Source: a virus. Taken from it: a stretch of 64,000 bases of DNA. The translations under genes and the position numbers were made by a program. This document shows positions 2,050-50,611 of the stretch, one piece after another. Each line of letters starts with the position of its first letter. The stretch's first letter is position 1. The notes beneath the pieces are model-generated. The model had not been told where the DNA came from. It searched no databases and saw nothing but the letters and a program-made list of their open reading frames with translations. The DNA is taken from positions 13,277 through 77,276 of the IMG/VR virus record IMGVR_UViG_3300020202_000068; one strand, 5' to 3'.

Positions 2050-2682
2050 ATGGCAGCGAGGAAGACGACGCCTGTCATGGAGATCAATATGCCGGCACCG
2101 AAGATAGTTCAGAAGCTACACGACAAACCGTCGTTCCCGACGACGTACAAAATCGCCTGCCGGGACCACGGCAAGCAGGTCTCTGCCATCATGGATCGGG
2201 TCGCAGCCAGCAAGTCCGAGACGATTAAAGCAGCCGTCAACGACCCAGCGGGGATTAAATGGCAGTTCGTAATGGCGCGGGCGAAAGACCCGGATGACCT
2301 GGAGACCGCCGAGCAGATCAAGGACTACTTCATCAAGAAGAGCAGGGTCTATCTCAAGGCCACGGTCGGTGCGCCAGGCTCCGGGGGACGTTCCCTGCAA
2401 TACGAGCCACTGGACACCATTCCGGTCTCGATCATGGCCCTCTTCGAGCAGAAGGCCAGCCAACTGGCGAAGCGCCGCGACCAGGAGGATACTGACATCG
2501 ACGCCGAAGAGGAGCAGGGGGCCCTGATGATCGGCTACCGGGGAGACGAGGACAGCCTGGTCTCGATCCTCGATCGCTGGTGGACCACCCACCCTCAAGC
2601 CGATAAGCGGCTCTACTACTACGTGCGTGAGGGAGTAAAGCAACTTATGGAGTCGGCTGGCGAAACCAGCCGGAGACGATGA
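2050..2682 (+). CDS. hypothetical protein
   Basis: Operon-contiguous 210 aa ORF; ATGA overlap with next gene. Confidence 0.7.
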   Translation: MAARKTTPVMEINMPAPKIVQKLHDKPSFPTTYKIACRDHGKQVSAIMDRVAASKSETIKAAVNDPAGIKWQFVMARAKDPDDLETAEQIKDYFIKKSRVYLKATVGAPGSGGRSLQYEPLDTIPVSIMALFEQKASQLAKRRDQEDTDIDAEEEQGALMIGYRGDEDSLVSILDRWWTTHPQADKRLYYYVREGVKQLMESAGETSRRR

Positions 2683-3464
2683 GCGATACAGCGAGGCCGG
2701 GGGAATTGCCGACAGAGGTAGACAACAAACGCAATAGCATTATGTGGATACACTACCCGCCAGCCGAAGGGTGGGCGCTGGTCAATCGTGGAGTCACGGA
2801 GTTTAACCGTCACAAGATGGTGTCTATCAGCTTCTCGGCTGACGGTGGTAAATCGTGGTCTAGCTGTGGTTTCGCAAAAAGGAGTTGGGCTGAGTCACTG
2901 TTTGCCAGGATAGATTCGGCCCTCAAGGCCATCGCGCCCGCTGGAGAGCAGACCCCAGATCAGCGACGAGCCACGGCCGCCGCAAGCATCACGGATGAGC
3001 AGCTATCGTTAGTCGAAGTGTCCGAAGAACCCGCCGGCGAGCAAAGGCAGGGTGAGAAGGTGGCGTGGTCCGCCGAACGTATCCGCAAGGAGCTTGGTCA
3101 GTTGTTCGCCAATCGCTTCAACTGCTGGGCGAAGAAAGTCGATGACCCAGAGCCGGACGACGAGATCGGCAGTCACATGGCCATGTCGCAGGATCGCTTC
3201 GTTGAAGTGGTGGGGCCGCTCTTAAAGCAACTGGCCGACGATTACGGGATGCTGACTGCGGCTGCGACCCGGGCCAAAGAGGCGGCAGAGAAAGAGCGAG
3301 GTGCGATTGCCGGCGAGATATACCGGCTCAAGATCGCAGCCAAGCAACTAATGAAGGCGCTCGATCAAGACGAAGCGTCAGGACTGGCGGCCTTTAAAAA
3401 TTCCGACCACACACTCGTTGGCGACCTACTGGAGCTGAGAAGGGCGTTAAATGTCGGGCGGTAA
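2679..3464 (+). CDS. hypothetical protein (C-terminal coiled coil)
   Basis: Translationally coupled 261 aa ORF. Confidence 0.65.
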   Translation: MSDTARPGELPTEVDNKRNSIMWIHYPPAEGWALVNRGVTEFNRHKMVSISFSADGGKSWSSCGFAKRSWAESLFARIDSALKAIAPAGEQTPDQRRATAAASITDEQLSLVEVSEEPAGEQRQGEKVAWSAERIRKELGQLFANRFNCWAKKVDDPEPDDEIGSHMAMSQDRFVEVVGPLLKQLADDYGMLTAAATRAKEAAEKERGAIAGEIYRLKIAAKQLMKALDQDEASGLAAFKNSDHTLVGDLLELRRALNVGR

Positions 3465-3551
3465 TCCGCATTGACAAATTGACGGCAGGATGCCATTTTG
3501 TCCCGCACTGTCACAAAACTACGTCACGCACACCATCGGGAGGGATTTCGT

Positions 3552-4325
3552 ATGGGTCAGGAGTTGAAGGCCGCCGGTTTAGCTCAAGGCCGCATTACGC
3601 TCAAGACCGCCGCCGAGCACATCAATCGGCTGCACCAGGAAGCCACGAACTTCTGCAAGGCCGGGCTGCTGAAGGCCATTGAGGCAGGGGAGGAGTTAGC
3701 CAGGACCAGGTCCGCCATTAAGCACGGGGCGTTTGGAGCCTGGGTCGAGTCGGAGTGCGAGTTCACGCTCCGCACGGCCCAGCGCTACATGGACCTCGCC
3801 GAGAATAAGGACAAACTGTACGAGGACATTGGCCCCGGGCAGATGTCGATCACGACCTTAAATGAGGGGATTGCCAAGCTCACGCAGAAGCGCAAGGAGA
3901 AAAAGGATGCTCTTAAAGCCGCCACTTTACCAGCAAGGGAACCTGCTGTTTCAGAGAATAAACCCACGGAGGGAGCCGTCGATGAGTGCATCAAGGGAGG
4001 AGCCCACAATTGGGAAGGTGACGTGGAGCTTCCCGGCGAGTTCTGTGCCAAATGCCACGAAGCGCGACCCGCTGTACGATCGGCCCCTGACGCGGATGAT
4101 TCGGGATATTCTGCGGCTGAACGATCCGACCCTGAAGAGGAAGCTGATTGTGGCCTGGCTGAGAGGGGATTGGCCGACGATCTCCTCAGCGAACTTGCCG
4201 CCCTACTCAAAGAGGCAGCGGACCTCGTTGACCAAGCGGCGAAAGCCCGCCCGTCGCCGCTCAAAGAAAGCGTCCTGACGAGCCTGACCGTGGCGTATGA
4301 AGATGTTCTTAAATGGAGGAAGTGA
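3552..4325 (+). CDS. DUF3102-family protein
   Basis: GEELARTRSAIKHGAFGAWVESECEFTLRTAQRYM signature. Start moved from TTG 3498 to ATG 3552, which has a GGAGG SD. Confidence 0.75.
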   Translation: MGQELKAAGLAQGRITLKTAAEHINRLHQEATNFCKAGLLKAIEAGEELARTRSAIKHGAFGAWVESECEFTLRTAQRYMDLAENKDKLYEDIGPGQMSITTLNEGIAKLTQKRKEKKDALKAATLPAREPAVSENKPTEGAVDECIKGGAHNWEGDVELPGEFCAKCHEARPAVRSAPDADDSGYSAAERSDPEEEADCGLAERGLADDLLSELAALLKEAADLVDQAAKARPSPLKESVLTSLTVAYEDVLKWRK

Positions 4326-4600
4326 TGAGCGTTGAAACTGATGGTGATGTCCCCATTGAATCGCTCCTGGCTGAATTGTGGTCGGCCGCTCCTATGCCGA
4401 TCTCGCTCACCATCGGTGAGTGGGGTTATGCGATGGCCGATATGGAGATGAGCATCAAGCGATCCAGGGCAGCTGGCGAGACGACGGTCGCCGACTGCCT
4501 GGAGGCCATTCTCCACAAGATGGAGGGCCAACTATTTCCGCAGTTTGGGCTGTCGTCGAGCGTCGAGGAGATTCGCCAGGCTACACGATTACAGGACTGA
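4325..4600 (+). CDS. hypothetical protein
   Basis: TGATG overlap with upstream stop; GGAGG SD. Confidence 0.6.
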   Translation: MSVETDGDVPIESLLAELWSAAPMPISLTIGEWGYAMADMEMSIKRSRAAGETTVADCLEAILHKMEGQLFPQFGLSSSVEEIRQATRLQD

Positions 4601-4614
4601 GAAGCTAAGAACGG

Positions 4615-6180
4615 ATGCTGGAATTACGTGACTATCAAGTAATCGCGGTCCGTCAGGTGTTTGACGCCTGGCGGGCTGGTCATCGTTCGGTGGTGCTCGT
4701 CGCGCCAACAGGGATGGGGAAGCGGATCGTGGCCTTGTGGCTGATGCAATACGCAGCCCAGGCCCGGAGGAAGGTGCTGTTCGTGGGCAACCGCCGGCTC
4801 CTGATCAACCAGGCCCAGGTCGATGCCGAGAAGTTCGGCCTGGATTACGGCGTGCTAATGGCCGACGCCGAGATGGGCAACGCCGGAGCCTCGAACCAGA
4901 TCGCATCCATTCAGTCCCTGGAGAGCTGGTATTTCTATGAACGATTCTCCGACATTCCCACCGGTAGGGGACTGCCCCCAGCCAACTGCGTCATTATTGA
5001 CGAAGGCCATCAGGATGTTGGACGATATGGCACCCTTCTTGGGTTTTATCCCGATGCAAAAATACTCATCCTTACGGCGACACCTGCTGGCGCTGAGGGC
5101 CGGGCTCTCGTCCCGTCGCCCTACGAAGTGATGGTCGAGCCGGTGAAGAACTCGCAGCTCATCCAGCGATTCCGCGACACCGGAGAGGGACTCCTCCCCG
5201 TGAAGGTGTTCGCCCCCAGCGAGCCGTTTCTCAAGGGAGTCTCGATTGATGGTCAGAAAGAATACAACCAAGCGAAGCTCGGCAGGGCGGTCCAAAGCTG
5301 CACCGTCGCGGCCGATGTCTTCAAAGAGTGGGAGCCGCACCAAGACCGGGCGACTGTCTGCTTTGTCCCAGGAATACCTTTCGGGCGTTCACTCGCCGGG
5401 CAATTCAATGATCGTTACGGTTCAGGGACGGCACACCTCATCGAAGCCAAGACAAAACCCCACGATCGGGAGCGGATTATTAACTCGATTAGAGACGGGG
5501 AGAGCCGGGTGCTGGTCTCGTGCGACGTTCTACGAGAGGGGTTTGACCTGCCCCTACTGTCTCTCGGAATTGATCTACAGCCTAATGCTCAGCTCCGAAC
5601 ATACTGGCAAAAACTTGGACGCATTAAGCGTCCTGAAGCAGGTCAAAGTGAAGCTATTTGGCTTGATTTCGCCGGCAACTACTGGCAGTTCCCCCACCCC
5701 GACGAAGACCCGGAGTGGCCGGTCGGCAGCGAAGAGACGACACAGGAGCTGATCCAGCGGAAGCGGAAGGAGCAGGGCGAGTCGCAGCCGATTATGTGCC
5801 CGAAGTGCTCGTACGTGCGGGCCAAAGGCCCTACCTGCCCCAACTGTGGCCACACCTCCGCGAATCCGATCCGCCGCATTCGGATGGGGGACGGCAGGCT
5901 GCAAGAGGTTCCGGCCGTGGCCCGTAAGGCCAAAGAACTGACGGCCGAGCAGCGGATGTTCAATAAATGGAAACAGAGGCTCTTTGCGGCCCTGCATTCC
6001 GGCTTGACGTATGGGCAATGTGCTGCCATCTTCAAGCGAGAGACGGGTCAGTCACCGCGTCACGGGTGGCCCGGGGTTTATCCCGCCCACGATCTATCGT
6101 GGAGCCGGAAGCCTCAACATGATCACAGTCGTGGCAGCCTCAACGCTGCCTGCCGTCACTATCAGGAGTCCATGGAATGA
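4615..6180 (+). CDS. SF2 DEXH helicase (RadD/YejH/Irc3-like) with C-terminal Zn finger
   Basis: LRDYQ Q-motif, APTGMGKR Walker A, IIDEGH, LTATP, EGFDLP, QKLGRIKR, CPKC/CPNC. Confidence 0.9.
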   Translation: MLELRDYQVIAVRQVFDAWRAGHRSVVLVAPTGMGKRIVALWLMQYAAQARRKVLFVGNRRLLINQAQVDAEKFGLDYGVLMADAEMGNAGASNQIASIQSLESWYFYERFSDIPTGRGLPPANCVIIDEGHQDVGRYGTLLGFYPDAKILILTATPAGAEGRALVPSPYEVMVEPVKNSQLIQRFRDTGEGLLPVKVFAPSEPFLKGVSIDGQKEYNQAKLGRAVQSCTVAADVFKEWEPHQDRATVCFVPGIPFGRSLAGQFNDRYGSGTAHLIEAKTKPHDRERIINSIRDGESRVLVSCDVLREGFDLPLLSLGIDLQPNAQLRTYWQKLGRIKRPEAGQSEAIWLDFAGNYWQFPHPDEDPEWPVGSEETTQELIQRKRKEQGESQPIMCPKCSYVRAKGPTCPNCGHTSANPIRRIRMGDGRLQEVPAVARKAKELTAEQRMFNKWKQRLFAALHSGLTYGQCAAIFKRETGQSPRHGWPGVYPAHDLSWSRKPQHDHSRGSLNAACRHYQESME

Positions 6181-6587
6181 AGGCTGAAGAATTGACCGCT
6201 GATTTTTTGGATTGGCTCAAGGGGGTGGGCGAGAAGTCCGCCGAGTTCATCGAGCGCGAGTCCCCACTCTTGGCCCAGGAGATCGTCGCCTGGCACTTCT
6301 GGAGCAACGCCGTTGAGGCGTGCCTGGGGATTCTATTCGCTTCCGTATTCGCTGCCGCATCTGCATATGCCTTTCGGAAGTGGATGCAGATGGCCCCCAT
6401 CAGCCGGGACACTCCCAATGAACACGATGGGAAAGTGCTCGCGCTGGGCTTCGGCTGGGGAATCCTGGCCGCTATCGCCGTCCTGATTTTGGCGATTCAT
6501 CTAACGGATGGCGTCTGGGGTATGGCAAAAGCCTCCTGCGCCCCGCGTCTCGTCATCATCGAAAACCTGAAAGGACTCGCGAAATGA
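6177..6587 (+). CDS. membrane protein (2 TM)
   Basis: Two hydrophobic segments; coupled to neighbours. Confidence 0.65.
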   Translation: MKAEELTADFLDWLKGVGEKSAEFIERESPLLAQEIVAWHFWSNAVEACLGILFASVFAAASAYAFRKWMQMAPISRDTPNEHDGKVLALGFGWGILAAIAVLILAIHLTDGVWGMAKASCAPRLVIIENLKGLAK

Positions 6588-6835
6588 CTAAGGAAGCTAT
6601 CGACGCCATGCTCGACCAGCTGGAAACGGCCATGCGTGAGTCGGCCGAGATGATGGTCAAGCTCAAGGCCCCGTCCACCGACGGCTCGATGCGGCCATCG
6701 CAGAGCCTGCGGATGATGTCGATCTGCGTGATGTTTGGCGAGATCATTGCCAGCTCCTTGGATTCCGGGGACAGGTCGGCCATGGAAATGTACCGGCGCA
6801 TGGTCCAAGAGCTAAATGAGAGGGAAGATGACTAA
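6584..6835 (+). CDS. hypothetical protein
   Basis: ATGA-coupled ORF. Confidence 0.6.
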   Translation: MTKEAIDAMLDQLETAMRESAEMMVKLKAPSTDGSMRPSQSLRMMSICVMFGEIIASSLDSGDRSAMEMYRRMVQELNEREDD

Positions 6836-7169
6836 CCAGGAACTGCGGGATAACATCCTCCGGGACATCAAAGCCGCCTACCGGGACATCAAGCGGCTCA
6901 ACTGCCAGCTCAATACGCCGGCCATGAAGCGGGTCTATCGGACAATCTGCCCGGCCAGGAAGGCGAGGGACGAGCAGAAGTCTGCCTACCGGATCGGAAT
7001 CATGGAAGCAGAGGATGAGCTGCTTCTGGCCTGGGATCGACTGCCTGAGGTAGATAAGCGGCTTCCGCCCACAGCCAGACTCAAGGAGGCGATGGCCTTC
7101 GGGGCTTCGCTCACGCGGCACCCCTATCGCCGTAAATACATGAAGAACCAGCTACAGCTGACGACCTAA
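6828..7169 (+). CDS. hypothetical basic protein
   Basis: GAGAGGGA SD; last gene before a terminator. Confidence 0.6.
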   Translation: MTNQELRDNILRDIKAAYRDIKRLNCQLNTPAMKRVYRTICPARKARDEQKSAYRIGIMEAEDELLLAWDRLPEVDKRLPPTARLKEAMAFGASLTRHPYRRKYMKNQLQLTT

Positions 7170-7248
7170 CGGAGCCGCAGGGATCGCGGTGGCCGGCAAG
7201 GACCGTCGGCCTGGCAAGGACGCGACCGGGCGAAGAGGCCCATTTTTC
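7169..7248 (+). ncRNA. candidate CsrB/RsmZ-like multi-GGA RNA (3'UTR) ending in an intrinsic terminator
   Basis: ACGGA, then hairpins CCGC-AGGGATC-GCGG, GGCCGGC-AAGGACC-GTCGGCC and CCTGG-CAAGGACGCGA-CCGGG, then GGGC-GAAGAG-GCCC-ATTTTT. Confidence 0.6.
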
Positions 7249-7262
7249 GTCCATCACGCGCC

Positions 7263-7291
7263 TTGACGCCAGTCACGGCCAAGTCAATAAT
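7263..7291 (+). promoter_or_regulatory. sigma70-like promoter
   Basis: TTGACG-17 bp-AATAAT directly after the terminator; contains a TTGAC...GTCAA inverted repeat. Confidence 0.5.
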
Positions 7292-7457
7292 CCACCACTG
7301 TCACGCAGCAGCTCAGCGTAAGAGGTCCTTTTCCGGCTCGTCCGGCAGGGCCGACCGAGAATAATCTCTTAGCCTTTCTGGCCACGGGACTCCTGCTCGG
7401 TCGATCACCCTGGTGACAGGGAGGGCCTCTTACCCTGGGCTGCCCAAGGAGTCACGG

Positions 7458-7862
7458 ATGAGCCTGACATTCAGGAGCGAATCCGACCTACTGCACTATC
7501 TCACCACCTCCCCACGCGGGAAGGGCATCCTCCGCGAGGCCTGTACCGAGAAGTGGATCACTGACGAGATATTGGAGTACAACCGCACCACGCACATCCT
7601 CGTGAAGGCTTATCGGGACGGCTGGATCGAGGTCTATGGACCAAAGACTACCCGCGCTCGCATCGTCTTCCTGGGTCGCACAACGACCTTCCCCGAGTAC
7701 GAAGTCACCCTTGAACGGCACCTTGATAGCCTCCTACCCACGCCGTATCGCGAAGTGCATTACCCCGGAAACAGACGGGCCATCGGCTATAGGTATAGCG
7801 GTCTTGAGAAAGACCGAGAGGTGAGGCTGCCGTGGAGCGGAGCGTTAAAATGTTCGAAGTGA
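7458..7862 (+). CDS. hypothetical protein
   Basis: AAGGAG SD before ATG 7458. Confidence 0.65.
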   Translation: MSLTFRSESDLLHYLTTSPRGKGILREACTEKWITDEILEYNRTTHILVKAYRDGWIEVYGPKTTRARIVFLGRTTTFPEYEVTLERHLDSLLPTPYREVHYPGNRRAIGYRYSGLEKDREVRLPWSGALKCSK

Positions 7863-8047
7863 GGAGCGTAGAAGGTAAGTTGCTGGGTAGCTACCTCATC
7901 AAGGATGAGGCCATTGGCCGCATGAATGAGTGGCCCCACGCTCATTACGTGGTCGAGGTGTACGAGGTGCGGCAGCTGGTCACTACCAAGGAGCAGGGAG
8001 GCTCTAGTGAAGCGAATAAGCCCGAAGCGCCGGAAGCGTATTTCTGA
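7850..8047 (+). CDS. hypothetical protein
   Basis: Short ORF contiguous in the operon. Confidence 0.5.
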   Translation: MFEVRSVEGKLLGSYLIKDEAIGRMNEWPHAHYVVEVYEVRQLVTTKEQGGSSEANKPEAPEAYF

Positions 8048-8372
8048 GGTCGCTCCGTTCCGGGAGGCCTTCAAGCTGGAAGTCGGCTGCTGTGAGCGAT
8101 GTCGCAAGCGGAGACACCTGGATGTCCATGAAATCGCCCGAGGATGTGACCGCAGCAAGGCCCTCGACAAGCGATACGCCCTGCTCGTGCTATGTCGAGA
8201 ATGCCACGATCACATGGATCATTGGTCCCGTGCCAAGCAACTATGTCTGCTGTATATCCGACGACCATACGACTTTGATCTCGGACGCTATCACGTCCTT
8301 ATTTGCCGCCGGACTCCCGAGATGGGCGAAGTCCTGGCCTGGGTGGAGCATTTAATGGAGGAGCTAAGATGA
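8007..8372 (+). CDS. HNH-type endonuclease
   Basis: CERC...DVHEI...LCRECH; GGAGG SD before GTG 8007. Confidence 0.75.
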   Translation: MKRISPKRRKRISEVAPFREAFKLEVGCCERCRKRRHLDVHEIARGCDRSKALDKRYALLVLCRECHDHMDHWSRAKQLCLLYIRRPYDFDLGRYHVLICRRTPEMGEVLAWVEHLMEELR

Positions 8373-8821
8373 CTGACAGTGACGCCGGGTGTCTATTTAT
8401 GGTTGTGATGGCCACAGTGGCGGGAGCCGCCGGTATCGGTGGAGGATGCGTGAACAGCAGCTGGAAGAATGCTGCAATCCGAGAGGGAGTGGCCAGCTAC
8501 GATCCGGCCACGAAGGAATTTAAGTGGAAGGGAGAGTCCGATAAGCCATCAGAACCCAAGCCGGAGCTGAAGCTCGGACAGCCGGTCGTGGTCTTGCACT
8601 CCACTACGGACGACCCTTTTTTCGAGGGCAAGGTCCTGGCGTTCACGGCCGACGGCCAGATGGCTAAAGTCGCCGACACTGGTACATTCCAGTGGCAACA
8701 TATCGCAAAGCTACGACCTATCGCCACACCGGAGAAAGTCGATGAACTGCAAGGACGCATCGGAAGTCAAGCAACTCGCCAAGCAGAGCGACAAGGCGAA
8801 GCTGGAGAACAGCTTCCATAG
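8369..8821 (+). CDS. membrane-anchored protein with SH3-like C-terminus
   Basis: GGAGGAG SD; N-terminal TM; LKLGQPVVV..GKVLAF pattern. Confidence 0.55.
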   Translation: MTDSDAGCLFMVVMATVAGAAGIGGGCVNSSWKNAAIREGVASYDPATKEFKWKGESDKPSEPKPELKLGQPVVVLHSTTDDPFFEGKVLAFTADGQMAKVADTGTFQWQHIAKLRPIATPEKVDELQGRIGSQATRQAERQGEAGEQLP

Positions 8822-9149
8822 CCATTGGGTGCTAATGTTCGGCGACCTGCCAGAGCCGGTACGGCAGCATCCGATTCTTAACCCCGAGACGAACCGCCAT
8901 TTCAAGCTGGACTTCGCTTGGGTAGAGGAAAAGCTGGCAGTGGAGATTCAGGGCGGGGCCTGGGGGAAGGGCGGGCACAACACCGCGCTGGGTCAGGCCC
9001 ACGACTACGCCCGCCACAACTACCTGACTCGCATCGGCTGGAGAATCCTGTATTTCAACTCACCCATGCTCAAAGACACGGCGGGCTGCGTGGAGCTGAC
9101 CGCTGAGATACTATGCGGGGCCGAAGAAGTGATCCCGACGGAGGAATGA
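8742..9149 (+). CDS. Vsr/DUF559-like PD-(D/E)xK endonuclease
   Basis: FKLDFAW..KLAVEIQGG...H...D..R.N.L...GWRIL motif. Confidence 0.8.
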   Translation: MNCKDASEVKQLAKQSDKAKLENSFHSHWVLMFGDLPEPVRQHPILNPETNRHFKLDFAWVEEKLAVEIQGGAWGKGGHNTALGQAHDYARHNYLTRIGWRILYFNSPMLKDTAGCVELTAEILCGAEEVIPTEE

Positions 9150-10042: not shown

Positions 10043-10066
10043 AGCAGCATCCTTGCCGCAAAAGGC

Positions 10067-17659: not shown

Positions 17660-17754
17660 GACAAGGCCTCCATGCCAAAGAACGTCCATCATCGACCAGC
17701 CGTGATCATACACGGAACGTCAGTGGTTACGCAAAGACCCACCCGAAATGGCTA

Positions 17755-17798
17755 GGCAAAAGCGACATGCCGTGTCGCTTTTGACGTAAGTCCTTATT
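17755..17798. repeat. dispersed ~45 bp palindromic element, copy A
   Basis: GGCAAAAGCGACA-TGCCG-TGTCGCTTTTGACGTAAGTCCTTATT (11 bp perfect inverted repeat). Confidence 0.85.
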
Positions 17799-21306: not shown

Positions 21307-21403
21307 TGATTCCTTCCTTGGAATCTGTAATTCTAGTGAATCCCTGGAGGGACGCCGCTATAGAACCTCCAACCCTGGCGTTCGGGACGCGGCACAGAAC
21401 GCA

Positions 21404-21793: not shown

Positions 21794-21865
21794 GAGTCCT
21801 TAGCCTAGAGGAGAGGCATCCGTCTTCTAAGCGGATATACGCTGGTTCGAATCCAGCAGGACTCG
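21794..21865 (+). tRNA. tRNA-Arg(UCU)
   Basis: GAGTCCT/AGGACTC acceptor, GCCT/AGGC D-arm, TCCGT-CTTCTAA-GCGGA anticodon arm, GCTGG-TTCGAAT-CCAGC T-arm; no encoded CCA. Confidence 0.93.
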
Positions 21866-21970
21866 CTCACCAGCCTGGAAGAATGCCGATCCGCTGTGAC
21901 GGATTCGCGTGGGTGACACACGAGACGAGGTCTTGATCCGGGAGTCCGGGGAGCCAAAGTGATGCACGCC

Positions 21971-23449: not shown

Positions 23450-24047
23450 GATTACTCCCAGTCCCTGAGATCAATTCCGCTCTCAAGATCGTCCCTGACT
23501 GCTGTCAGGAGGTCGTTTTCGTTCACGGCTCACCCCCATCCGTGTGAGGTAAACCCCTGAGTTTGTGCATTCTTTTGTAGGGCGGGAGGGAATTTTTGTC
23601 GTGCGGGCTTCCGGGGTTTGCAATAAGTCGGGGGCCTTGCTATGGTTACGGACGGCAAGAGGGTATGGATTTACATGACACATCTTCAGCAATACAATCT
23701 GAGCAGCGTCTGTGGGTCCGGCCTCTTGCCAAGAGCCTCCACGATATTGGCCCAGCACTCCGCCTTGTAAGCGGTTTGTTGGGCCTTTTTCGTGCGCTGG
23801 CTCCTTATTCGGAGGCGGTATTGGATGCCGCCCGGCAAGGACGTGCCGGATAAACCCGCCACCAGGCGAGGTAAAGACGCCTATCGAAATCAGTCACCCA
23901 TAGCCGAGAGGCGGGTGCAGGTTGGAACGCTATCGTTCTCCCGGTCATGCTGACGACTCCAGGCCAGGGCTAATAGAGATAGCGGCGGTGGAGGAATCCT
24001 AAGGCCGTTGTTAATAGAAACTTAGGACGCTAGAGCGATGCCCGGCT

Positions 24048-24122
24048 CCGTCGGTTATCAGGCCAGCGATTTTCCGTACAGCACGGAGTCGCTGCGCTCA
24101 ACCCTCACCGTCGGTTATCAGG
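24048..24122. repeat. 15 bp direct repeat CCGTCGGTTATCAGG x2, 60 bp period
   Basis: Copies at 24048-24062 and 24108-24122. Confidence 0.85.
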
Positions 24123-24132
24123 GTTCACTGAC

Positions 24133-24609
24133 ATGACGACAGATATGTCGGCCTATCCGGCCAGAGACAGGCTATTGAGGCTCATGGGCTATGAGAGCTA
24201 CAGCCAGTACCTGGCATCAGCGTTATGGAGACGCATACGAGAGGCGGCTTTAGCCCGTGATGGCGGGAAGTGTCGATGCGGGAGCCCAGCGACCCAGGTT
24301 CACCATAAAAACTACAACCTCCTCACCCTCCAAGGAGAATGTCTGTCTGGCTTGGTATCTGTCTGTGGTGGGTGCCACTATGGGGCTGAGTTCTCGAAGT
24401 ACGGGAAGACGACGCTGAAAAGAGCCAATAGCAGGCTGAAGACGATCGCCAAGAGGCGGCGTAAATCGAAGGTGGCAGAGTCACCGGAGTATCGCGCTGC
24501 CGTAGCCAGGAAGTGGCGGCTCCTGCGTGGCGGTAGGCCGAGAGAGGAGATCGCGAACGAGCTAAAGGCCGTCCGATCGGAGATTCGCAGGTTGATCGCT
24601 GAGCAGTAG
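24133..24609 (+). CDS. HNH endonuclease
   Basis: YLASALW..R...L.RD..KCRCG....VHHKNY...LVSVCGGCH. Confidence 0.85.
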   Translation: MTTDMSAYPARDRLLRLMGYESYSQYLASALWRRIREAALARDGGKCRCGSPATQVHHKNYNLLTLQGECLSGLVSVCGGCHYGAEFSKYGKTTLKRANSRLKTIAKRRRKSKVAESPEYRAAVARKWRLLRGGRPREEIANELKAVRSEIRRLIAEQ

Positions 24610-28628: not shown

Positions 28629-28841
28629 TGTCGTTCCTTCTATTGGCTAGTTGGCGACCATCCTGGCCGCATAACGATCAGTTATTTACCGGACAATCGT
28701 TCACTAGAAATCCTACCACAAGGCGATTCCAATGGACCTGTCGGGTGGATCGTCCGTAAAAATCCACGCCAGGACCAGGAAATGCTGGTGATCGGCCGTC
28801 AATGTGTCGTCAAAATGTCAATACGGACAGGGAGGTGTCCC

Positions 28842-29042
28842 ATCTTGGTGCTATCACGAAAAAAAGGCGAACGTCTTATTATCGGCGAGGACATCGCGAT
28901 TGAGGTCGTCGAGGTCAGGGGAGACCGCGTCAGGCTCGGCCTGGAGGCACCGGACTATGTATCCATCGTCCGGGAGGAGCTATTAGACGTGCTGCGGGAG
29001 CAGGCGCAGCGCGAGACTAGGCTGGCGAGGGCAGCCGGCTAG
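28842..29042 (+). CDS. csrA: carbon storage regulator CsrA/RsmA (RNA-binding translational regulator)
   Basis: (I)LVLSRKKGERLIIGEDIAIEVVEVRGDRVRLGLEAPDYVSIVREEL. The Met1 position is ATC; alternative TTG at 28845. GGAGG SD at 28831-28835. Confidence 0.95.
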   Translation: MLVLSRKKGERLIIGEDIAIEVVEVRGDRVRLGLEAPDYVSIVREELLDVLREQAQRETRLARAAG

Positions 29043-35958: not shown

Positions 35959-36100
35959 TGGCGAGCATCCTTGCTCTGGTTATTTGATCCGTATAAACGC
36001 TCCTGGAATTCATTTCGGAGCGTCTCCAAGTCCCAGCTGCCACGGTCTTCATCCTCCCACTGCGGCTTTCTTGCTAGATGCGACAGAAGGAGTAGCTCGA

Positions 36101-43107: not shown

Positions 43108-43124
43108 TTAGGCGTCCTTGCCTG

Positions 43125-49404: not shown

Positions 49405-49478
49405 TGTGAGAAATCCTTTTCTCGCTAGTCAGTTTTTGCCTTTTGGCGAATACCCTGAATCCTGAGGGGTTAAATGGC

Positions 49479-50593: not shown

Positions 50594-50611
50594 CTTTTCA
50601 TCCTTGAAAAG
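50594..50611 (-). promoter_or_regulatory. CsrA-type RBS hairpin of the major capsid gene
   Basis: CTTTTCA-AGGA-TGAAAAG, 2 nt before ATG. Confidence 0.75.

Follow-up and report, generated by a model that had tools for sequence, protein, structure and literature searches.

A conserved, folded non-coding RNA module at the end of a phage helicase gene cluster, a candidate docking site for the phage's own CsrA

The helicase gene cluster of an uncultured 77-kb soil phage ends in a conserved, non-coding, folded RNA module that occupies the 78 nt past the stop codon at position 7169. The phage makes its own CsrA and carries ribosome-binding sites (RBSs) in GGA-loop hairpins similar to those of the module; hence, docking of CsrA is the most likely role of the module, which would serve either as a small decoy or as a cis-acting switch. 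We put the probability of this reading, drawn from the nucleotide sequence, at roughly 0.45. The DNA analysed, here called the window, is a stretch of 64,000 nt (G+C ~59%) that corresponds to positions 13277-77276 of a 77,276-bp IMG/VR virus record rated complete by CheckV, and coordinates refer to the window unless stated otherwise. An earlier note on this DNA had described the module as a CsrB/RsmZ-like sponge RNA, with four ANGGA motifs in non-coding DNA, three of them in the loops of consecutive hairpins that run directly into an intrinsic terminator. Its observation is partly confirmed: the motifs and their non-coding status stand, and the combination of three loops with a terminator does not.

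A near-identity search of INPHARED phages returned no match to this phage, and the best helicases of cultured phages are ~30% identical to its own. The helicase cluster (2679-7169, plus strand) consists of tightly packed, partly overlapping genes, among them a DEAD/ResIII helicase (4615-6180, plus strand). The last ORF of this translationally coupled cluster (6828-7169, plus strand, with an alternative start at 6816; coding score +0.21 per codon) ends with the stop codon TAA at 7167-7169. The 288-nt gap that follows is the largest in the plus-strand gene block, and further plus-strand genes lie past it at 7458-7862, 7926-8372 and 8742-9149. The first of these encodes a protein of 134 aa with no family match (7447-7862 including its Shine-Dalgarno (SD) sequence, AAGGAG, at 7447-7452), and among the relatives' loci compared a homologue was found only in L016. 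Searches with g6816 and g7458 in IMG/VR and in a set of 5.8 billion proteins gave no relatives outside the phage's own cluster. Within the gap stands a sigma-70-like promoter site, TTGACG-17-AATAAT (7263-7291, plus strand; 10 of 12 matches), the sole site of its kind found in 6000-8500, and it probably marks the start of the next transcription unit. No such site was found in 6000-7169 with the sigma-70 consensus, which may not be the promoter type of the host. Because plus-strand genes continue past the promoter-like site, the module is only presumptively the "operon's 3' end".

The four ANGGA words stand at 7169 (ACGGA), 7179 (AGGGA), 7198 (AAGGA) and 7216 (AAGGA), all where the earlier note had placed them. 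The first (7169-7173, plus strand) is single-stranded in the predicted fold and shares its first A with the TAA stop; its unpaired probability is 0.10 (52nd percentile), and ACGGA is retained in G002, the related phage to which the module is compared below. Next come hairpin H1 (7174-7190, plus strand; a 5-bp stem of four Watson-Crick pairs and one G-U pair, loop AGGGAUC, -6.6 kcal/mol) and hairpin H2 (7191-7211, plus strand; a 7-bp stem, loop AAGGACC, -11.9 kcal/mol), both of which are contained in the centroid fold. By predicted accessibility the GGA of H1 has an unpaired probability of 0.84 (99th percentile) and that of H2 lies at the 87th percentile. The AAGGA at 7216, the third motif said to be looped, sits instead in the single-stranded linker of the predicted fold, within the site GGCAAGGACGC (7213-7223, plus strand), whose core C-AAGGAC-G fits CANGGANG and is closed by two base pairs (GC/GC). 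The 9-mer GGCAAGGAC forms an exact direct repeat (D4) with copies at 7195 and 7213, 18 nt apart. The placement of the four GGA is thus two in loops, one in the linker and one at the stop codon. A GGA in a loop closed by a C-G pair, with the consensus CANGGANG, is what we take to be the SELEX-type CsrA-binding site. The form of that site (GGA in a loop of 5-8 nt, a C-G closing pair and a flanking A) is found in C-AGGGAUC-G (H1), C-AAGGACC-G (H2) and C-AAGGAC-G (linker).

The element closes with H3 (7228-7247, plus strand), which combines a 4-bp stem GGGC/GCCC with the loop GAAGAG (7228-7241, -7.0 kcal/mol) and is followed by an A and five U (7242-7247). The stem and the U-run of the claimed intrinsic terminator are therefore present, but a consensus terminator scanner that needs 5 pairs made no call on the 4 pairs of H3, and by the usual definition of an intrinsic terminator (a GC stem of at least 5 bp and a U-run) H3, with 4 pairs and U5, falls short. 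It is one of 13 hairpin-plus-T-run sites in the non-coding DNA of the genome, ranking far below two strong terminators with 12-bp stems, and as modelled this 3' end resembles a terminator that would at most work weakly. An alternative hairpin (7209-7231, plus strand, -9.1 kcal/mol) would loop out the linker AAGGA. Since this hairpin overlaps bases of both H2 and H3, three looped motifs and a terminator cannot coexist; in the modelled folds it could act as an anti-terminator. A separate palindrome family, GCGACA-N4-6-TGTCGC followed by TTTTG, occurs at three loci (17745-17790, both strands; ~26061, minus strand; and genome position 5633-5652, window -7643 to -7624). It can be read as a terminator on either strand and has the look of a bidirectional terminator, or of a protein site, peculiar to this phage.

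That the motifs lie in non-coding DNA is borne out by the coding scores: all six frames of 7170-7363 are negative (-0.17 to -0.30 per codon, where the gene median is +0.16), and the one contact with a gene is the A that the first motif shares with the stop. The accompanying claim, that no start codon explains the motifs as SD sequences, is less secure, for a GUG at 7189, 5 nt after AGGGA, opens a frame of 25 codons; the coding score of that frame is -0.04 per codon. One could picture a very short gene or leader peptide that begins at this GUG here and, in G002, at an AUG within the loop of H1 (22 codons); ribosomes reading it would pass through H2 and H3, which would couple translation to read-through. 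In both phages the start codon lies 4-5 nt after a GGA, and the conserved block ACGCRACCGGG is read in the same phase. We nevertheless regard such a peptide as very improbable: apart from the coding score, the two start codons are at non-homologous positions, the frame of one phage is lost in the other through 1-nt indels, and the SD-to-start spacing is below the 7-10 nt usual in this phage. Taken together, the 1-nt indels relative to G002 and the negative coding scores argue that the element is not a gene.

IMG/VR, JGI metagenomes and GTDB genomes were scanned with the helicase profile, which yielded 57 loci. Many helicase relatives, with 45-78% identity, are found on metagenome contigs of ~70-77 kb, the closest of them (P0003-P0009) being 64-78% identical. 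In several relatives the helicase is ~800-880 aa long and interrupted by intein or homing-endonuclease domains (PF14890, PF05203/PF05204, PF14528), as at L004 5992-8547 (G002) and in P0012, P0015, P0048, P0052, P0056 and P0073; the helicase match of G002 is split into residues 1-349 and 285-520. Among the loci found, a homologue of the element is present only in G002 (with the near-identical copies L005 and L019), where it lies 140 nt past the helicase stop. The ORFs between helicase and element have no homologues, and the region from the helicase to the conserved g7926/g8742 pair is variable; the element stands at the end of the helicase cluster regardless of the genes that precede it. In a syntenic search space, local alignment to G002 scores 60; shuffles give 26.8 +/- 4.7, with none of 2000 above 45, and the other relatives score 32-40. 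This homology is visible only with the syntenic search space and softer scoring, and strict whole-genome local alignment against G002 missed it (score 27, equal to shuffles). When IMG/VR was searched twice with patterns of the conserved blocks, collagen-like coding repeats and unrelated matches were all that came back, and an IMG/VR scan with P0003 recovered G002 again and nothing further.

In the sequence-based alignment, which has one informative relative, G002 retains 13 of the 16 pairs of H1-H3. Two pairs have changed on both sides (7176-7188 from C-G to G-C and 7194-7208 from C-G to U-A), and the three pairs lost are all at helix ends, with none broken inside a helix. H1 keeps four pairs, one of them through the C-G to G-C change, and its loop, AUGAG, is without GGA. 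H2 keeps five, one through the C-G to U-A change, and its loop retains AGGGA; the linker keeps both its 2-bp GC/GC closure and its GGA. The stem of H3 is invariant, its loop has gained a GGA (AUUGGAG) and its U-run is only 3 U. A MAFFT alignment of the two sequences is inconsistent with the structure at H1. Each phage thus has GGA at three of the four loop or linker positions, the positions differing between them, and at ~30% divergence G002 still has 6-7 GGA over the corresponding 80 nt. The earlier note had made its proposal depend on conservation of the GGA loops in relatives, and here the outcome is divided: H2 and the linker are kept in G002, but the GGA of H1 is lost, and the csrA-carrying relatives G001, G003 and G005 are without the element. 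The next gene of G002 starts ~35 nt past H3, so the stem cannot terminate efficiently there, and no room is left for a promoter between H3 and that gene.

The same comparison bears on a reading at the level of DNA, in which the two GGCAAGGAC repeats (7195 and 7213) would be transcription-factor sites controlling the promoter at 7263-7291. An exact 9-mer repeated at a spacing of 18 nt, 42-68 nt upstream of the -35 hexamer, is compatible with such an arrangement. However, G002 has the element and neither the promoter-like site nor the exact repeats, the changes between the phages keep RNA pairing rather than DNA words, and a spacing of 18 nt is off the helical repeat. We find this reading scarcely credible.

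The case for CsrA docking starts from the protein. The phage csrA gene (28845-29042, plus strand; TTG start at 28845, 65 aa) is intact as judged by its sequence and matches PF02599 with 69.3 bits (E 2.3e-20; cut-off 27). In a full-length alignment, residues 1-60 match the CsrA structures of B. subtilis and E. coli (PDB 1t3o and 1y00), and both the N-terminal LSRK and the arginine of VxxxREE are retained. The SD of csrA itself lies in the loop of a hairpin, GGACA-GGGAGG-UGUCC (28825-28840, plus strand), with an ACGGA before it. The gene is conserved in this phage clade: four of five related IMG/VR phages carry csrA (G001, G002, G003 and G005; L059-L062), and its position is the same in G000 and G002. 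In the phage studied here, SDs in hairpin loops are more frequent than in flank-shuffled controls, both for stems of at least 5 bp (12 vs 4.6, p = 0.007) and for stems of at least 6 bp (6 vs 1.3); the excess is weak in G002 and there is none in G001, G003 and G005. On the minus strand, hairpins of the type stem-A(A)GGA(N)-stem carry the RBSs of late genes 6-9 nt ahead of their start codons and outnumber those in shuffled flanks (for example 50594-50611, 49408-49423, 43110-43123, 35962-35975, 21309-21326 and 10044-10059). The RBS hairpin and start of the capsid gene are identical in G002. The phage's own csrA, together with a structurally conserved homologue of the element in one relative, is the strongest support for the likeness to Csr decoys, and it went uncited in the earlier note.

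CsrA homologues encoded by phages and plasmids are on record (Sobrero & Valverde 2020, PMC7366521), csrA occurring in ~1% of sequenced phages (PMC7366521), and in a CRISPRi-ART study the phage csrA PTXU04 gp28 had a fitness effect, its knockdown giving smaller plaques (PMC11879866). Our literature search turned up no phage CsrA with a described RNA partner or set of targets. The present phage resembles the known cases in having an intact csrA on a mobile element and differs from them in that candidate targets (the RBS hairpins) and a candidate decoy are in the same genome. Atlas neighbours of the phage CsrA are mostly from Planctomycetota, a possible host lead only. The sole genome match, L102 (CAZZDD010000003.1, 71,867 nt), is binned in a 'Candidatus Peribacteria' MAG and has a 50%-identical helicase and a size typical of this phage clade. 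It is probably the mis-binned genome of a related phage and not a sign of the host.

As a cluster of motifs, the element is only modestly unusual. Four ANGGA in 60 nt occur 5 times over both strands of the window, the genome has six tandem GGA-loop hairpins (stems of at least 5 bp), and Tandem Repeats Finder found no array. The element folds no better than shuffles (z = -0.44; z = +0.98 for the G002 homologue), and its summed GGA unpaired probability is 1.54, against at least 1.81 in each of the 25 best 80-nt windows of the genome. What stands out is CARGGAY, present three times within 50 nt; the motif was defined after the sequence had been seen, and ~0.013 such triples would be expected genome-wide. 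This is the sole triple in five related genomes. A CARGGAY site fits the consensus at which CsrA-family proteins dock and equally the SD context of the phage. CARGGAN is the ordinary SD context here (10 per kb at start sites vs ~1 per kb elsewhere); the sites of the element could be SDs, relics or decoys, that have nothing to do with CsrA.

These figures lend weight to a plainer explanation, that the element is an ordinary transcription-unit boundary whose GC hairpins stabilise the 3' end of the mRNA and terminate weakly, the GGA arising incidentally, from G+A richness or as remnants of old RBSs, and CsrA having no role. The promoter-like site, the only one in 2.5 kb, begins 16 nt past the stem and U5, the element lies in the largest gap of the plus-strand block, and few sites in the non-coding parts of the genome (the 13 counted above) pair a hairpin with a T-run. 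The fold z-scores and the density of accessible GGA are unexceptional, three csrA-carrying relatives do without the element, and G002 keeps the stems but loses one GGA loop. On the other side, the CARGGAY triple is not expected by chance, G002 retains its 6-7 GGA at ~30% divergence, its stem, with a gene close behind and no promoter between, is not an efficient terminator, and the phage encodes CsrA, a protein that reads such loops. We consider a boundary without CsrA possible, if rather doubtful, and prefer docking of CsrA.

Other structured sequences occur near the element and elsewhere in the genome. Directly past the promoter-like site, a strongly folded leader RNA lies upstream of gene 7458 (7308-7443, plus strand), bounded by the 22-nt arms of inverted repeat I1 (7308-7329 and 7422-7443). 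The fold is multi-branched over 7298-7445, and the fold of 7298-7475 reaches -81.7 kcal/mol (z = -3.45; none of 200 shuffles matched its stability). This RNA, which has no Rfam match and no copy in the relatives, may have a regulatory role as a leader or be a small RNA in its own right, and its bases 7385-7394 form a potential anti-SD to the SD of gene 7458. Two overlapping GGA-loop hairpins stand at window 23813-23850, one with the loop UUGGA and the other with AGGACG, which shares GGCAAGGACG with the element; they fall within a gap of ~900 nt (23450-24350) between divergent gene blocks. Upstream of the window, L103 10960-11320 (genome coordinates) is a 370-nt gap with a tRNA-like sequence whose long insert contains CAAGGACCG. 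The gap also has more closed stem structures, and neither Rfam nor ARAGORN makes a call in it. In the whole genome these two gave a single match, a phage-encoded tRNA-Arg (anticodon TCT, window 21794-21866).

The element is outside all named sponge families. No Rfam model, CsrB, CsrC, RsmX, RsmY and RsmZ included, matched 6500-8000 in a cmscan at E<=10, and a whole-genome Rfam scan at the gathering score returned nothing except a tRNA. The decoys RsmX/RsmY/RsmZ and CsrB/CsrC (RF02144, RF00195, RF00166, RF00018, RF00084) share with the element the placement of GGA in short hairpin loops and linkers and an end made of a stem and a U-run, and the 18-19-nt spacing of its sites suits bridging by a CsrA dimer. 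Unlike the decoys, with their 5-22 GGA, the element has 4, of which 2 are looped at once, a count below that of any named sponge family and comparable to minimal binders. It also differs in being an mRNA tail with no upstream promoter-like site and a very weak terminator, on a phage rather than at a chromosomal locus, and in having no covariance-model match at E<=10. The likeness to Csr/Rsm decoys claimed by the earlier note thus holds for the GGA in loops and linker and for the closing stem and U-run, and not for family membership, the number of looped sites or the strength of the terminator.

The fuller proposal was that a trans-acting CsrB/RsmZ-like RNA builds up during infection, titrates CsrA and so releases late-gene translation. 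It draws on the same evidence as CsrA docking, and the perfect stem-A(A)GGA(N)-stem hairpins before late and structural genes on the minus strand, including the identical capsid hairpin of G002, would supply its targets. Against it, the element offers only 2-4 sites where known sponges have 5-22, Rfam is silent, 6000-7169 has no promoter-like site from which a separate RNA could start, and the other csrA-carrying relatives have not conserved the element. Transcription of the element, titration of CsrA and a "late-gene timer" would each have to be supposed, and we think the full model unlikely.

Systems with fewer sites offer other comparisons. The Salmonella fim mRNA leader titrates CsrA, and pgaA, glgC and hcnA have CsrA-controlled leaders with structure switching. 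The latter leaders resemble the element in carrying several GGA in or beside hairpins, and its exclusive folds (H2 and H3 vs 7209-7231) could let CsrA alter termination; in contrast to these leaders, no site of the element overlaps a downstream SD, the next start being 288 nt off and behind a separate promoter-like site. In vitro, CsrA is also bound by the rrA/rrB/rrF RNAs, which E. coli rRNA operons encode between their dual terminators (PMC8144298). The fim leader and rrA/rrB/rrF both resemble the element in that a few CsrA sites sit within a longer transcript, at the edge of an operon, with no dedicated sponge gene. They differ from it in having binding data, whereas the phage element is known from its sequence and its protein partner would be encoded by the phage.

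If the module docks CsrA, about two CsrA dimers would be accommodated on it. This could work in two ways. The module may be a small decoy borne on the 3' end of an abundant early or middle mRNA, or it may act in cis, CsrA shifting the balance between H2 and H3 (stop) and the hairpin at 7209-7231 (read-through into the next genes). On this reading RNA would end or be processed at the element, CsrA would bind there and late-gene translation may be affected. A still more ambitious picture, which we hold to be improbable, is a viral Csr circuit in a soil phage, possibly of Planctomycetota, in which the phage CsrA acts at late-gene RBS hairpins and a decoy in the tail of the replication transcript relieves this control as infection proceeds.

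Should the tail turn out not to dock CsrA, it would serve as a caution that GGA-loop hairpins before a terminator arise easily where the SD of a phage is AAGGAG. Beyond such hairpins, the present phage stands out by its conserved csrA, its RBS hairpins and the pairing retained in G002. The genome provides a compact testable set for distinguishing these outcomes: a 65-aa CsrA, at least 12 GGA-loop RBS hairpins and an 80-nt tail with three consensus-like sites, the tail being conserved in one relative. If the viral Csr circuit were true, the tail would be the first RNA from a virus to antagonise CsrA. And if the tail does dock CsrA, the virus would bring with it both a regulator and its antagonist, and may time its own translation independently of the host.
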